Origin: Tequatrovirus BCH953P4
Reading direction: 5' to 3' (one strand)
Length of the DNA: 64,000 nucleotides
Sequence record: OZ035789.1
Position numbers and translations under genes: made by a program. The notes under the pieces were generated by a model. That model worked only from the letters and a program-made list of their open reading frames with translations. It was not told the DNA's origin and ran no database searches. This document shows, piece after piece, positions 1-61,429 of the stretch. How positions within the stretch are numbered: the stretch's first letter is position 1; each line of letters starts with the position of its first letter.

Positions 1-825
1 GAAAATATTATCACCACTAGTAGGTCTATTATACAAATACTCTATGCCACCAGGTTTAATATAGTTCCATGTCTGAAACGGATGTGTCTGATATGGATGA
101 TATAGATGATTATAAGGATTAAATCCAGGAGTTCTCCAGGTAGTGTTCCAAGGAAAAGAATCGTTTTTGATCATCTTCTCAATTACATCTTTTATAACTT
201 TTTCACTATCAAAACTTTCTTTATTTTCCTTCGATGGAAAAAGCTTATTCTCTACATCATTCCATGTATAAACTCGCTGTGCAGTTTTTGGAATACTGTC
301 ACGCTCTCCTCGAGCCATCCAATAAACTGGAACATTTAATATTTCACTCGCATGATCACAGTGGTGAGCGAGATCGTCAATATAACAAATTACGTTATAT
401 TTCTCTTTTGCCTTTTTGAACAACTCTTCTTTTGAAGAATCATGACCACACATCAGTACTTCTGAGAAGGCACCAGGAAAAAGAGCATTCAAATTAAATT
501 GACGATTCAGCAGAGCGTCAATAGAATCACCCAGTGCTGTAACAGCTACAAAATTATAATCTTCTTTTAATTTGTTAATTACACACAGGGCATCTTTATA
601 TGGAGACAAGTAACGAATAAAATCTGAACGATTATATTTTTCAATTAACTTGACACCAAGTTCTTCATCGCAATTAAAGAGCTTACCAGGAGAAATAAAT
701 TTTTCGTCCTGAATCATTTTTAAAATATGTTCTAATGGAAGATTATATTTTTGGGCAAAATAAGGAAGGCCTGATTGCCAGCTTAAACACACCCCGTCAA
801 TATCAGTCAAAATAGTAGGCTTCAT
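1..825 (-). CDS. HAD-fold hydrolase-like protein, partial (3' end lies beyond window start)
   Basis: Minus-strand frame open from ATG ~825 to position 1 with no stop; N-terminal ILTDIDGV (DxDG) motif; ATGA overlap with stop of upstream ORF at 822. Confidence 0.55.
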   Translation of the reverse strand, partial: MKPTILTDIDGVCLSWQSGLPYFAQKYNLPLEHILKMIQDEKFISPGKLFNCDEELGVKLIEKYNRSDFIRYLSPYKDALCVINKLKEDYNFVAVTALGDSIDALLNRQFNLNALFPGAFSEVLMCGHDSSKEELFKKAKEKYNVICYIDDLAHHCDHASEILNVPVYWMARGERDSIPKTAQRVYTWNDVENKLFPSKENKESFDSEKVIKDVIEKMIKNDSFPWNTTWRTPGFNPYNHLYHPYQTHPFQTWNYIKPGGIEYLYNRPTSGDNIF

Positions 826-1286
826 AGAGAGTCTCTTAATAGGTTTAACACATCAATAAATTCAGCTTCGGTTAATATTGTATCATCTTTTGTTAGACCA
901 CTAGCCATGCTGTGCTTCAAAACTTTTCCTTTTGAGGCTTGTAAGGCATCACGAAACCCCTTGTTTTGAATCGCTGCTTCAAAATATGCATTTGTGTATA
1001 ATTCTTTCCACGCCGGGGAATATCTTGAAAACGGAACTCCAATCCAGAAGAGGGTCCCACGGTCCTGAGCTCTAGCATAAGACCTTCCAGCTTGTTGGGC
1101 GGCAAGCCCGGATAACCCAAATATACGACGTTGTTGTTCAACATTTTTCACCTTACACCCTTGGAGGAATCCTTCAAGACCTCCAAATTGAATACCATCC
1201 ATAACGAAAGGCCATTGGGCGAAATTACTTAATGCACATGATGGCCACCTAAAATTGCTTCTAATCTCTAACTCAGACATTTTCAA
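822..1286 (-). CDS. YbiA/NADAR (DUF1768)-like protein
   Basis: 154-aa ORF; LSNFAQWPF..DGIQF..LEGFLQGCK resembles the SNFxxWP..DG..sEhxxQxxK signature of YbiA/NADAR; occupies the T4 30.3 position. Confidence 0.55.
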   Translation of the reverse strand: MKMSELEIRSNFRWPSCALSNFAQWPFVMDGIQFGGLEGFLQGCKVKNVEQQRRIFGLSGLAAQQAGRSYARAQDRGTLFWIGVPFSRYSPAWKELYTNAYFEAAIQNKGFRDALQASKGKVLKHSMASGLTKDDTILTEAEFIDVLNLLRDSL

Positions 1287-1479
1287 TGCTTATAATTTCA
1301 ACATCAGCCCAATGACCATAGCAAGGAAGACGAAATTCAACTGGCCAGTTAGGGTCCTTTTCTAATATAATAGACTCAACTCGTGGTTCTTCATGTTCAT
1401 CAGTATATGGATTTTTATCTGTTACTTTATATGTGACCTTAATGTACTGAATTCCAAAAATCTTATTAATTATATTCAT
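1273..1479 (-). CDS. hypothetical small protein (68 aa)
   Basis: ORF track; tight packing and same strand as neighbours in the 30.x region. Confidence 0.5.
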   Translation of the reverse strand: MNIINKIFGIQYIKVTYKVTDKNPYTDEHEEPRVESIILEKDPNWPVEFRLPCYGHWADVEIISIENV

Positions 1480-1673
1480 ACTAATTCCTTTAATCCGTAG
1501 ATAGGAGATAATTCATCACCCATACGAAGGTCTTCATTTCCATCTACCCAGGAAACAATATAAGCCTCTTTTATTTGAATACCACTCCATTTAAATGGAG
1601 GTAGAACCTTAGAAATTAATCCAGGTATACCAACTCCCTTTAATTCAACAGTTTGACCTAAAAAGAATTTCAT
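1476..1673 (-). CDS. hypothetical small protein (65 aa)
   Basis: ORF track; start overlaps stop of upstream ORF. Confidence 0.5.
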   Translation of the reverse strand: MKFFLGQTVELKGVGIPGLISKVLPPFKWSGIQIKEAYIVSWVDGNEDLRMGDELSPIYGLKELV

Positions 1674-1960
1674 TAGAACCTCATCTGAAAACCGTGCGAT
1701 TTAACATTACCGCCGCCAATATCAGAAATGTTAATTTCACGCGCAATTGAAGGGTCAATGTCAATTTCGCGATTGAGTTTAGTGATAGCTAAAGTATCAC
1801 GCCCATTTACAGTACGAAACTCTAAAGGACAAACCACATCAACGTAGTTTTTAATCGATTCGCTAGTAGGTTGCAAATGTGCAGGAAGGTCTTTAGGCGA
1901 CTTTGAGAAAACTACTTCGCAGAAGTTTTTACGGGTATCAAAATAAGTAGTCATAAACAT
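1673..1960 (-). CDS. hypothetical protein (95 aa)
   Basis: ORF track; 1-nt overlap with neighbour. Confidence 0.55.
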   Translation of the reverse strand: MFMTTYFDTRKNFCEVVFSKSPKDLPAHLQPTSESIKNYVDVVCPLEFRTVNGRDTLAITKLNREIDIDPSIAREINISDIGGGNVKSHGFQMRF

Positions 1961-2001
1961 AACATTTTCCTCAGTAAGGGGCCAAAGCCCCTCATTTTAT
2001 T

Positions 2002-2379
2002 TTAAATATCAAATTCGTTAAGAACTACATCAAAGATTGCTTCAAGATGCTCAGGTTTAGCTCTGTTACTCAGAATATGACGAATCCAAGTTTTAACCAA
2101 AAGCTTGCGATTAGCACCATTCCAGCAAGGATGAGTCCCTAAATCACGTTGACGAAAATCATCATCCAGAGCGATTTTGAAGTTTGAACCTTCCATTGTG
2201 ATTGAAACCGTGATTCCATTTTCAAATCGCATATAAACGTAATTAGGAGTCATATACTGCTCAATTTCGCATACTGATCCATTTTGATGTTTCCAAAGGC
2301 AAATAGTATCAATAGAACCTGCAATACAATTAGAAACATATTTACGTTCAAAATTGATGTAGTTCATTTTATTCTCCAA
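2002..2379 (-). CDS. hypothetical protein (125 aa)
   Basis: ORF track; same-strand early gene array. Confidence 0.55.
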   Translation of the reverse strand: MENKMNYINFERKYVSNCIAGSIDTICLWKHQNGSVCEIEQYMTPNYVYMRFENGITVSITMEGSNFKIALDDDFRQRDLGTHPCWNGANRKLLVKTWIRHILSNRAKPEHLEAIFDVVLNEFDI

Positions 2380-2434
2380 GATGTTTAATTGCGGTACAGG
2401 TATATAATATCATATCCTGTACCAAAGTAAACAA

Positions 2435-2767
2435 TTATTTTACTACTTTCCAATGCTGCATGTCAAGTTTACCAACTTTTTTCATCTTCTCAATTAAGCG
2501 TTCGGCACGTTGGCGAGCTGTAACATAATACCATTCACCTAATTCATTTTGTTCAATTTTTCCAACGATTACTGTATTCAATTCATAAATCCAACCAGTA
2601 AAGAAATTATGAACTTGAATTGTAAAGGTGAAATCTGTTCCCATACCTTCTGTTGTTTCTACTTCAATAATATCACCTTCAACTGCCATTAAGAACCACA
2701 TAGTTTCATCATATTTACCATTGAAGCATTTAGTTTTAACTGTAGCGTTCAGATTAATCGTTTTCAT
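2435..2767 (-). CDS. hypothetical protein (110 aa)
   Basis: ORF track; preceded by early-type promoter and SD GGAGAA. Confidence 0.55.
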   Translation of the reverse strand: MKTINLNATVKTKCFNGKYDETMWFLMAVEGDIIEVETTEGMGTDFTFTIQVHNFFTGWIYELNTVIVGKIEQNELGEWYYVTARQRAERLIEKMKKVGKLDMQHWKVVK

Positions 2768-2789
2768 TTTATTCTCCTTTGTTTGTGTA

Positions 2790-2825
2790 AGATAATACTA
2801 TCACAAAGGAACCGTACTGTAAACA
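2790..2825 (-). promoter_or_regulatory. early promoter
   Basis: GTTTAC, spacer, TAGTATTAT, SD GGAGAA. Confidence 0.5.
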
Positions 2826-2846
2826 ACTTTGTGCAATCTTTGGAAA

Positions 2847-2874
2847 ATAAAAAAGGACTCCCGAAGGAGTCCTT
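2847..2874 (-). terminator. rho-independent terminator after the small basic ORF
   Basis: Minus strand GGACTCC-ttcg-GGAGTCC then TTTTTTATTTT. Confidence 0.6.
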
Positions 2875-2877
2875 AAC

Positions 2878-3054
2878 TTATGCTTTCTGCTTACCAAAAC
2901 GAGAAGCATCATCTCGAAGAACCGCACGTGCTCGGCGCATGATCTTCTCAACAGTTTGATTGATACGAGAGTTCGACCCACGCTTGTAGCCAGCGCGTTT
3001 AGAATCACCAACTTTCTTTTCAACTGCTTTCTTTGCTTTAGCTTGTTTTGCCAT
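2878..3054 (-). CDS. small Lys/Arg-rich protein (~58 aa)
   Basis: Internal ATG (MAKQAKAKK..) of track ORF 2878..3096; followed by terminator hairpin. Confidence 0.5.
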   Translation of the reverse strand: MAKQAKAKKAVEKKVGDSKRAGYKRGSNSRINQTVEKIMRRARAVLRDDASRFGKQKA

Positions 3055-3342
3055 TATAAATTCTCTTTTAAATGAAAATGCAGGACTTATTGGCATTGCC
3101 TGCGCAAGCCCTCAAGGGGAACATAGGTTTTTGGATATTTAACGACCAGGATAACCATAAACCCGTCATCATACCACCAAGACTTACACAGATAACACTT
3201 TTCTGACGCATGATAGTAACATTCAAGAGGTACACCGTAAAACTGCCGGGGTCTTAAAACTATAATGATTCGCAAATCATTAATCAGACAGTTCGACGGC
3301 TCCTCGATTTAGCTCACACTAAGGCAGTGAATCTCCAATAAA

Positions 3343-3591
3343 TTACTTCAATGTTACCACAAAGTGACGAACTGCTTTTCGTGCAGCAGAAGCCAGAGGC
3401 TTAGCATATTTAAGTTCATCTTTTTCCTGAAGCTCAGCAGCTAATGCAGTTTGAGCAGGATTCAGATGTTTGAAATAACGCAGGATTTCAAGAGCTTCGG
3501 CTTCAACATCAATAGATGCGCCATAGTTTTCGTGACCATTATTCCATGCGTTTCGTTGCAGTTCAAGAGCGTGTTGTAATTGTTTAATCAT
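3343..3591 (-). CDS. rIII: rIII lysis-inhibition accessory protein
   Basis: 82-aa ORF matching T4 rIII in length, sequence and position immediately before gene 31. Confidence 0.85.
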   Translation of the reverse strand: MIKQLQHALELQRNAWNNGHENYGASIDVEAEALEILRYFKHLNPAQTALAAELQEKDELKYAKPLASAARKAVRHFVVTLK

Positions 3592-3738
3592 TTAAAAATT
3601 CTCGTTAGAGATTAAAACTCGGTAGTCACGTTCTTCTGAATTTCATCTTCTTTCGACAGATCTCTCAGTTGTAGACTACCACATAGAATTGTTCGGTTAA
3701 CTTATTATTCCGACACCCAATTCATATTATTATTTATA

Positions 3739-53928: not shown

Positions 53929-54531
53929 TTATAGATTAAATCCTTCAAAATCAAGAGTATAGATAGTGTATGTTGAACACTTTTTATACTCATATCTATC
54001 TGCAATTCTAAATACACTTCCAGCCGGTATCATTACTTCTTGTTCATCTGAAACTAATTCCATATTACGATAACGATGACTATCCGGAAACTTAAAGTTT
54101 GGATTGTATTCTTTACAGCGTAGAGCTTTTATAGCATACTCCTGGAAATTGAATACCATAGGAGCTTTGAATTCAAAAATAACTTGTGTGTTATACTCTA
54201 AACCGGAAGCAAAATGTAGAGCTATATTTTTATCATATGAAGCTGATACGACTTTATCAAATGTAATAATATCAATTCCTTGATTTAACACCTGCTTAGT
54301 CTCAGCTGGAACACCTCTCCAAAGAGGTTTATCGTTTGGAACCAAACGAGATTTGATTATTTCATTTAACCAAGAATGATCGTCTGGCTTATTAGTAATA
54401 CAATGAATTAAAAGTTCAATTTCGGATAAATTAAATCCTTCGGAAAGTAATTCTTCACGAATAGAAGCACGCACCGATGCATCCATTGATTTGATTTTAA
54501 AATCTTTTAATTGCATTGCTGAATATTTCAT
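53929..54531 (-). CDS. modA: ModA ADP-ribosyltransferase
   Basis: 200-aa ORF of T4 ModA length, tandem with its 207-aa paralogue. Confidence 0.85.
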   Translation of the reverse strand: MKYSAMQLKDFKIKSMDASVRASIREELLSEGFNLSEIELLIHCITNKPDDHSWLNEIIKSRLVPNDKPLWRGVPAETKQVLNQGIDIITFDKVVSASYDKNIALHFASGLEYNTQVIFEFKAPMVFNFQEYAIKALRCKEYNPNFKFPDSHRYRNMELVSDEQEVMIPAGSVFRIADRYEYKKCSTYTIYTLDFEGFNL

Positions 54532-55151
54532 TCAACTACCTCAATATCATACACTTTAAATGTTCCAAATGAATCGTGTAATTTTTCTTTTGAAATAGAA
54601 GTTATTTTATACTTTCCAATTGGAATCATCCATTCTTGTTCACGTACAATCATCATTAAGTTATCAGTACGTTCTGAATCTAATCCATCAGTATCTTCAT
54701 ATGTATACTTAAACTCAGTATTAGGAGAAGAAAGTATAATATCGCTGATATGGTCAGAATAATTAAAAGCTTTATCAGTTTTTAAGCGAAATATTATTTC
54801 AGTGAAATACTCAACATAAGAAAAACCACATGCTGTGTGCAAACTAGTAGTAAATGAATCTACCCTGTTCGTTGAAAACACCTCTCCAACTTGTAAATCT
54901 TTAATGAGTTCTTTTGTCGATTTTGATATACCACGATATAACTGATAAGGTGATTTAGTTAAATGCTTTTTAATGATTTTATTCAACTGCTGATGAAGAG
55001 CTTCATTCTTTTTGGCTTCCATACATTGCCAAAGAACAGATTGCTCAAAGTCAGTAAATTTTTCACAGACCTTTTTATACATATCATATTGAAAATCAAC
55101 GCTTTCAGCTTTTATAGATAACTGTTCAACATCTGCAAGATTAATAATCAT
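54528..55151 (-). CDS. modB: ModB ADP-ribosyltransferase
   Basis: 207-aa ORF of T4 ModB length; ATGA coupling to modA. Confidence 0.85.
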   Translation of the reverse strand: MIINLADVEQLSIKAESVDFQYDMYKKVCEKFTDFEQSVLWQCMEAKKNEALHQQLNKIIKKHLTKSPYQLYRGISKSTKELIKDLQVGEVFSTNRVDSFTTSLHTACGFSYVEYFTEIIFRLKTDKAFNYSDHISDIILSSPNTEFKYTYEDTDGLDSERTDNLMMIVREQEWMIPIGKYKITSISKEKLHDSFGTFKVYDIEVVE

Positions 55152-58239: not shown

Positions 58240-59579
<1,340 letters not shown>

Positions 59580-61072: not shown

Positions 61073-61429
61073 TTAACCTCTATTCATAAAAGCATTAAAA
61101 ATTTGGTCATCAATAGATGGCGCAGTAATATTTTCTGCATCATTTAGCAAATCATTAATTTCATCAGATAGCATAACACATGTACCTTTATTTCCTGTAA
61201 TTGTTACTGCACAATTACGAACGTTTTCTTTATCAAATTTTAGGTTAATATTTTCGTAGTGAAAATCCTTTAATGCCGAATATATCTTTAAAATGAAATT
61301 GTCTTTTACTACAATAAACCCAACCTCACTATTAAAACGCGGTTCATGGAAACTGTAATAAACCTTTTCATCTATAAAATCGTATGAAATTTTTTCCATT
61401 TTTAAATATGAAAATTCAGAACTATGCAT
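61073..61429 (-). CDS. hypothetical protein (118 aa)
   Basis: ORF track; 61-41 interval. Confidence 0.55.
   Translation of the reverse strand: MHSSEFSYLKMEKISYDFIDEKVYYSFHEPRFNSEVGFIVVKDNFILKIYSALKDFHYENINLKFDKENVRNCAVTITGNKGTCVMLSDEINDLLNDAENITAPSIDDQIFNAFMNRG

Follow-up and report, generated by a model that had tools for sequence, protein, structure and literature searches.

It has been shown that gp30.3 of phage T4, named AdfN for anti-DarT factor NADAR (Johannesman et al., Nat Commun 2025, PMC11825919), is both necessary and sufficient against DarTG1 (10.1101/2024.07.11.602962, PMC11825919). The purified T4 protein strips ADP-ribose from DarT1-modified DNA, rescue is abolished by the substitutions E36A and K43A, and the RB69 allele, from which the last 15 aa are missing, is inactive (10.1101/2024.07.11.602962, PMC11825919). 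An independent group found in vitro that the T4 NADAR hydrolyses guanosine-ADPr and not thymidine-ADPr (Toxins 2024, PMC11125620); the methods of that study give the construct as 'residues 1-208', whereas T4 gp30.3 has 152 aa. The substrates reported for the T4 enzyme are guanine-ADP-ribose in DNA/RNA, and in a 2026 summary table the phage NADAR is not entered for cytidine-ADPr. In the hands of both groups, T4 AdfN gave no rescue of DarT1 toxicity in uninfected cells (PMC11825919, PMC11125620). Non-T-even phages are helped weakly by T4 AdfN, and the full effect needs T-even infection. Since AdfN fails without infection and works on unmodified T4 DNA, the authors postulated another T-even factor (PMC11825919). 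By the mechanism shown for T4, DarT1 of the host ADP-ribosylates guanines in the replicating phage DNA and so blocks its replication, and AdfN, a single-domain NADAR hydrolase regarded as an 'orphan antitoxin', restores replication by cleaving the N-glycosidic bond between ADP-ribose and guanine. Its active site comprises the Glu E36, the Lys K43, which binds phosphate, and, in the last strand, the His of the phage type, H123. Both the NADAR identity of gp30.3 and its anti-DarT role are already in the literature, and our result for this gene is confirmatory.

The window, that is, the whole stretch of DNA analysed here, comprises 64,000 nucleotides of Tequatrovirus BCH953P4. Many Tequatrovirus (T4-like) genomes are 97-98% identical to it in the first 4.1 kb, and identity to Tequatrovirus genomes is ~96% across 25 kb of the window; an identical record was not found. 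Every gene at the left edge lies on the minus strand. Comparison with annotated T4 and one close relative gives, in order of falling coordinates, gp31, rIII, the 30.9 position, 30.8, 30.7, 30.6, 30.5, 30.4, 30.3 and 30.2; in these two genomes, 30.1, DNA ligase (gene 30), alt.1 and alt come next, beyond the window edge. The ADP-ribosyltransferase gene alt would belong to this gene block too, ~2 kb past the left edge. The features on which the following analysis is centred are:

822..1280, minus strand: gene 30.3 (adfN), a 152-aa phage-type NADAR, with ATG at 1280..1278 and TGA at 824..822
1..825, minus strand: gene 30.2, HAD phosphatase-like, 275 of 278 codons, its C-terminal end being cut by the window edge
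822..825, minus strand: ATGA in which the stop of 30.3 (TGA 824..822) overlaps the start of 30.2 (ATG 825..823)
1273..1479, minus strand: gene 30.4 (68 aa), directly upstream of 30.3, from the ORF list and the T4 annotation
917..1144, minus strand: ORF 30.3' (75 aa), in another frame within 30.3, given in the T4 annotation as internal translation

All the elements described in the initial annotation were found in the sequence. The ATGA overlap between 30.3 and the partial ORF downstream of it is present at 822..825, and ModA- and ModB-like genes do occur in the same window, at 53932..54531 (-) and 54531..55151 (-), where they match phrog_832 'RNA polymerase ADP-ribosylase' with E 2e-33 and 5e-42. 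The stop of 30.4 and the start of 30.3 overlap by 8 nt (ATGTCTGA, 1273..1280), and further overlaps are found between 30.6 and 30.5 at 1673 and between 30.5 and 30.4 at 1476..1479. All four junctions from 30.6 to 30.2 within the window therefore overlap, by 1, 4 or 8 nt, and in relatives the 30.2/30.1 and 30.1/ligase junctions do so as well. Since overlaps are usual between the genes of this operon, the ATGA of 30.3/30.2 is not distinctive. A promoter and terminator scan of positions 1..3700 gave hits at chance level, with no promoter between 30.3 and 30.2.

The mechanical ORF at 822..1286 (-) has 154 aa and begins at TTG. The biological start of gene 30.3 lies at the ATG 1280..1278, so that the product has 152 aa, in agreement with the T4 annotation (459 nt) and with the published E36/K43 numbering. 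The string LSNFAQWPF..DG..LEGFLQGCK, which had been noticed in the 154-aa ORF as resembling the YbiA/NADAR signature, is indeed there and corresponds to residues 17-43 counted from the ATG; in a profile search, it aligned with 'FSNFAAWPIKVDGKTWPTSEHYFQAQK' of E. coli YbiA. The window protein and T4 gp30.3 are identical at 150 of 152 residues (98.7%). Both differences, I80 (L in T4) and M124 (I in T4), are conservative, and M124 adjoins the catalytic H123. Across 48 gp30.3 homologues, neither E36 nor H123 varies, and K43 is kept in at least 90%.

In Pfam, gp30.3 matched PF08010 (Phage_30_3) with E 4.3e-70, far beyond what chance would give; the score was 234.3 bits (cut-off 36), and the match spans positions 1-138 of the 138 in the profile. 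The search against NADAR/DUF1768 proposed in the initial annotation gave a divided answer: the general NADAR profile PF08719 (formerly DUF1768) did not match the window protein even at E 1, and it was matched by 15 of the 48 full-length homologues, with a best E of 1.5e-7. When the family profile was run against PDB sequences, YbiA came out on top (E 0.008), while a single-sequence phmmer search of gp30.3 against the same sequences yielded a chance match only. The relationship to YbiA is thus visible only through the family profile or by structure comparison, not with single-sequence phmmer. NCBIfam had no match for gp30.3 or gp30.2.

An AF2 model of gp30.3, built on the 48-sequence alignment, reached a pLDDT of 92.4 and a pTM of 0.88. 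Its top three fold matches in the PDB are all NADARs, namely 2b3w (YbiA; E 1e-4, TM 0.68), 8bau (a Phytophthora nicotianae NADAR with ADP-ribose) and 8bat (a Geobacter NADAR), and nothing else in the PDB was significant. In the model, the last strand (residues 120-123) ends with H123, and the C-terminal helix (138-151) is complete, the protein having its full length of 152 aa. The residue in the last strand of NADARs follows a rule, being His in the phage type, Glu in the YbiA family and Asp in the DarG1 family; gp30.3 carries the phage-type His. The features of the DarG1 type are absent, as there is neither the last-strand Asp nor an N-terminal extension (the first strand begins at residue 3), and neither of the neighbours, 30.4 and 30.2, resembles an ADP-ribosyltransferase toxin in profile searches or annotation. 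Judged from the model and the PF08010 match together with E36, K43 and H123, gp30.3 is a NADAR-superfamily enzyme with a predicted YbiA/NADAR fold, as had been supposed from its motif.

What we computed here is gene identity, fold, catalytic residues and synteny; the activity and the anti-DarTG1 phenotype are those published for the T4 orthologue. We infer that the window allele of AdfN is active, and, as this published counter-defence enzyme is intact here, the phage is predicted to be resistant to DarTG1. The initial annotation had suggested that the protein may reverse host ADP-ribosylating defence toxins, and this has been demonstrated for T4 AdfN, which differs at 2 of 152 residues. The reading that we hold to be highly probable is that gp30.3 is AdfN, a DNA guanine ADP-ribosylglycohydrolase, and that gp30.2 is a separate HAD phosphatase which is not needed against DarTG1.

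The product of gene 30.2 is ~96% identical to T4 gp30.2 and falls in phrog_420 (function unknown). Its N-terminus, MKPTILTDIDGV, contains D8-x-D10-G11, the DxDG motif by which a HAD enzyme had been suspected, and all four HAD motifs are present: D8-I-D10-G-V, T96, K132 and D150-D151, which are invariant or conserved in at least 90% of 41 homologues. In the structural model, a Rossmann-like HAD core, confident to about residue 197, carries a four-helix C1 cap inserted right after motif I (between motifs I and II), and a C-terminal tail of about 75-80 residues is disordered. A conserved C-terminal peptide of gp30.2 reads G-x-G-I-E-Y-L-x-x-x-P-T. Pfam gave no above-threshold family assignment for the window protein. 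In the HAD profile search that had been proposed, the protein itself gave no match, and PF00702 (HAD) was matched by 11 of the 41 homologues (best E 3.4e-4); likewise, PF06941 (NT5C) was matched by five of the 41 (best E 1.2e-4) and not by the window protein. The top Foldseek match of the model is the cytosolic 5'(3')-deoxyribonucleotidase 2jao (E 6e-9), and the related nucleotidases reach TM values of 0.65-0.71, normalised to the target. The family profile also placed 2jao first among PDB sequences, with a marginal E of 0.046, in an alignment that pairs DGVxxxW-SGL with DGVLADFESGL. In the literature, we found no functional or biochemical report on gp30.2. We conclude that gp30.2 is most likely a catalytically competent, Mg-dependent HAD phosphomonoesterase acting on a small phosphorylated metabolite, for which a nucleotide is possibly the substrate class and the lead candidate. 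It is a well-conserved, motif-intact HAD enzyme of T4-like phages, and its function is one of two leads remaining from this locus, the other being the significance of 30.4.

As to its genomic company, DNA ligase lies directly downstream of gp30.2 in 71 of 77 loci and alt is near it in 55 of the 77. One may ask on these grounds whether gp30.2 is a PNKP-like DNA-end 3'-phosphatase which prepares nicks for the ligase, and weak matches to Pfam HAD_PNKP (PF25109, E 0.17) and, with E 0.0036, to the polynucleotide kinase family phrog_415 point in the same direction. However, PF25109 stayed far under its threshold (12.5 bits versus a cut-off of 27.6), PseT already serves T4 for the removal of DNA 3'-phosphates, and the model shows a four-helix C1 cap and not a capless core open to DNA ends. 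HAD C1 caps go with small-molecule rather than macromolecular substrates. Because T4-like gene order is broadly conserved, the adjacency of gp30.2 and ligase is by itself weak evidence, and we regard a DNA-end phosphatase as unlikely. In our preferred reading, gp30.2 would be a phosphatase with a function of its own, encoded within the conserved 30.2-(30.1)-ligase-alt block.

The T4 transposon data allow the neighbours of 30.3 to be compared on a DarTG1 host. Relative to the control, insertions in 30.3 vanished (log2FC -7.25), and exactly two genes were significant, 30.3 and 30.4, the latter with a log2FC of -1.79 and an adjusted p of 0.014. Gene 30.2 was neutral (log2FC -0.12, p 0.61, 71 insertion sites), a result measured in T4 with one DarTG1 system in rich medium. 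Insertions in 30.2 were also neutral in M9 versus LB, and the gene is non-essential on K-12. On K-12, insertions in 30.3 were neutral in LB as well as M9, and the sole phenotype of this gene is the one on DarTG1.

Could one of the neighbours in the block 30.4-30.3-30.2 supply the T-even-specific factor postulated for AdfN? If any does, the candidate is gp30.4 and not gp30.2, since 30.4 is the second DarTG1 gene and is restricted to phages of the T4-type AdfN clade. Homologues of 30.4 turned up solely among T-even phages with a gp30.3 that is at least 84% identical, in every case immediately before that gene, and an iterated profile search for gp30.4 outside the T-even clade brought nothing new past round 1. 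Nevertheless, the transposon signal in 30.4 is more simply explained by polarity on the coupled 30.3, and it is possible that 30.4 acts as a translational driver of 30.3. We give only a small probability to a factor encoded by either neighbour. gp30.2 as the missing cofactor of AdfN was rejected as the main reading on its transposon neutrality and its synteny, and at most it might be a redundant or conditional helper.

ORF 30.3', the other reading frame within the gene, has 5 changes in 75 aa with respect to T4, compared with 1 change in the 30.3 frame over the same bases. In 8 of 14 relatives, ACG, ATT or ATC stands in place of its ATG, and one more relative has a broken frame. As the start codon is not conserved, 30.3' was rejected as a real overlapping gene; by this comparison of sequences it is probably not a conserved gene.

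The initial annotation had treated 30.3 and 30.2 as a pair that may process ADP-ribosylated substrates. As a two-enzyme module, gp30.2 could dephosphorylate the ADP-ribose released by gp30.3 or its breakdown products, act on a phosphorylated DNA remnant, or itself be the T-even factor of AdfN. The ATGA coupling speaks for such a module, as do the adjacency of the two genes in all close relatives (loci L011-L022 and L051; some distant ones share it) and the full effectiveness of AdfN only in T-even infection, for which its authors propose 'another factor'. However, only 30.3 and 30.4 were significant on DarTG1 and insertions in 30.2 were neutral, purified AdfN is active alone in vitro, and overlapping junctions are common throughout the operon. 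The distribution of the genes argues in the same sense. A gp30.2 homologue was found at up to 4 kb from a gp30.3 homologue in 19 of 80 viral loci and was lacking there in the other 61; in eight further loci with a gp30.3 homologue, from other large phages, no gp30.2 homologue was found. Conversely, a gp30.3 homologue lies within 5 kb of gp30.2 in only 37 of 77 loci, compared with 71 of 77 for DNA ligase, so that gp30.2 tracks the ligase instead, and in nine genomes carrying both, 54-69 kb separate the two homologues (contig ranges). With an unspecific overlap, proximity in 19/80 and 37/77 loci and a transposon-neutral 30.2, the functional pair was not upheld, and we consider a module of the two enzymes decidedly improbable.

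The other role that had been envisaged, balancing the phage's own ADP-ribosylation, fared no better, and we found no evidence for it. Here gp30.3 would counteract Alt, ModA and ModB by taking ADP-ribose off proteins of the host or the phage, which would fit the presence of modA and modB in the same window and of alt just past its left edge. Alt, ModA and ModB target protein arginines, a different linkage from guanine-ADPr. The T4 enzyme has been reported to act on guanine-ADPr in DNA/RNA and not on thymidine-ADPr, the only phenotype of 30.3 mutants is specific to DarTG1, and many phages have gp30.3 homologues without an alt seen nearby, all of which makes this role very improbable. Finally, that gp30.3 is a housekeeping N-glycosidase of the YbiA type, acting on riboflavin-pathway intermediates and not on DNA, may be dismissed as extremely improbable: YbiA is its best PDB match in both structure and sequence, but the last-strand residue is the phage-type His and not the Glu of the YbiA family, and DNA de-ADP-ribosylation and the DarTG1 phenotype are published for T4.

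With gp30.3 read as AdfN and gp30.2 as a separate phosphatase, both proteins can be set against the known systems. The cytosolic and mitochondrial 5'(3')-deoxyribonucleotidases (cdN/mdN, NT5C; 2jao, 2i7d, 1mh9) and the deoxyribonucleotidase-like 3bwv of Staphylococcus resemble gp30.2 in the HAD core and the helical C1 cap, as well as in an aromatic residue 8 positions past the nucleophile, W16 in gp30.2 versus Phe. They differ in that identity to gp30.2 is 17-20%, the phage protein has an extra disordered tail of ~80 aa, and the window protein lacks a Pfam NT5C match.

For gp30.3, E. coli YbiA (2b3w) is the best fold match and has the motif SNF..DG..E..Q..K in common with it. However, the two share 18% identity, YbiA carries Glu at the position of the phage-type His, and it has been connected with riboflavin metabolism and a LexA operon. 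DarG1, the BC4488-family NADAR of DarTG1 (Geobacter lovleyi 8bat, E. coli C7), shares the fold and, as established for T4 AdfN, the reaction, namely the removal of ADP-ribose from DNA guanine. In contrast to DarG1, the window protein is an orphan without an adjacent DarT toxin, carries a last-strand His where DarG1 has Asp, and comprises 152 aa without an N-terminal extension versus 219 aa in 8bat; moreover, T4 AdfN gives no rescue from DarT1 in uninfected cells. The phage NADARs Bas32 and Bas60 are likewise anti-DarTG1, guanine-specific DNA ADP-ribosylglycohydrolases. Unlike T4 AdfN, they come from other NADAR clades and were independently acquired, and they rescue DarT1 toxicity without infection. 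AdfM (Tk.4) of T4 follows the same strategy of a phage-encoded ADP-ribosylglycohydrolase resembling an orphan antitoxin, but has an unrelated fold, a macrodomain, counters the thymidine-modifying DarTG2 and is encoded elsewhere in the genome. The closest system is T4 AdfN itself: the gene is the same and occupies the same place in the genome, and, apart from I80 and M124 (L and I in T4), its product agrees with that of T4 in length, in E36, K43 and H123, and in the intact C-terminal helix.

Among all the genes in the published T4 transposon insertion screen comparing DarTG1 hosts with the control, gene 30.4 was the only one besides 30.3 (adfN, coding for the anti-DarTG1 NADAR enzyme AdfN) to be significant on DarTG1, with a log2FC of -1.79 and an adjusted p of 0.014. 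Its counterpart in the window is:

Window 1273..1479, minus strand: gene 30.4 (68 aa), overlapping the start of adfN by 8 nt.

No obvious ribosome-binding site was found for adfN itself. Homologues of gene 30.4 are confined to the T-even clade with the T4-type AdfN, always directly upstream of it. Either the DarTG1 signal of gene 30.4 is a polar effect, or the gene is a candidate for the additional T-even factor postulated by the authors of the AdfN work. The overlapping genes running from 30.6 to the ligase gene begin just downstream of a hairpin:

Window 1977..1992, between 30.7 and 30.6: GC-rich hairpin AGGGGCCAAAGCCCCT, which the annotation of a relative calls a terminator.

A second reading frame lies inside gene 30.3:

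Window 917..1144, minus strand: ORF 30.3', in another frame of 30.3, annotated in T4 as an internal translation.

This is probably not a conserved gene. Of 14 relatives, 8 do not have its ATG and one more has an interruption in the frame; with respect to T4, there are 5 amino-acid changes in the frame of ORF 30.3' versus 1 in that of 30.3. In most relatives, the frame runs for 75 codons without a stop.

When the loci of gp30.2 homologues (HAD phosphatase-like proteins) were compared, DNA ligase was found to follow in 71 of 77 (L091-L163; T4 locus L010), and 55 of the 77 were found to have the ADP-ribosyltransferase gene alt no more than 5 kb away. Many T4-like phages keep the block 30.2-(30.1)-ligase-alt, while the position of gp30.3 varies. 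In four loci on large phage contigs of up to 308 kb (L002-L005), genes for a NUDIX hydrolase and a Thg1-like protein lie about 2.6 kb from the gp30.3 homologue; no gp30.2 homologue was found near it. The gp30.2 protein itself ends in a tail:

Window 1..225, minus strand: C-terminal tail of gp30.2, a disordered linker followed by a conserved short motif.

In the forms of about 280 aa, this terminal motif, approximately G-[TG]-G-I-E-Y-L-x-x-[QR]-P-T, is conserved and could be a docking peptide; the entire tail is missing from the forms of about 200 aa of other T4-like phages.

The initial annotation placed ModA and ModB in the same window, and both genes are indeed present:

Window 53932..54531, minus strand: ModA-like ADP-ribosyltransferase gene (200 aa), matching phrog_832.
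Window 54531..55151, minus strand: ModB-like ADP-ribosyltransferase gene (207 aa), matching phrog_832.

Neither protein had a match in Pfam. In the T4 transposon data, alt was neutral on DarTG1; modA and modB are also given as neutral on DarTG1 hosts, with figures that are RnlAB data.

The other published anti-DarTG1 factor, AdfA (208 aa), is the product of T4 gene 61.2, at whose position we found:

Window 61073..61429, minus strand: ORF of 118 aa.

When this ORF is aligned with the C-terminal portion of AdfA from T4, identity is only about 30%, compared with 95-99% for the surrounding genes 61.1, sp, 61.4 and dmd. Another ORF adjoins the Dam GATC methyltransferase gene:

Window 59019..59579, minus strand: ORF of 186 aa between dam and gene 61, phrog_8706 (function unknown).

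It gave weak Pfam matches to the restriction endonucleases DpnII (E 0.0045) and BanI. In T4, dam and gene 61 are separated by a gap of just 310 nt in place of this ORF.
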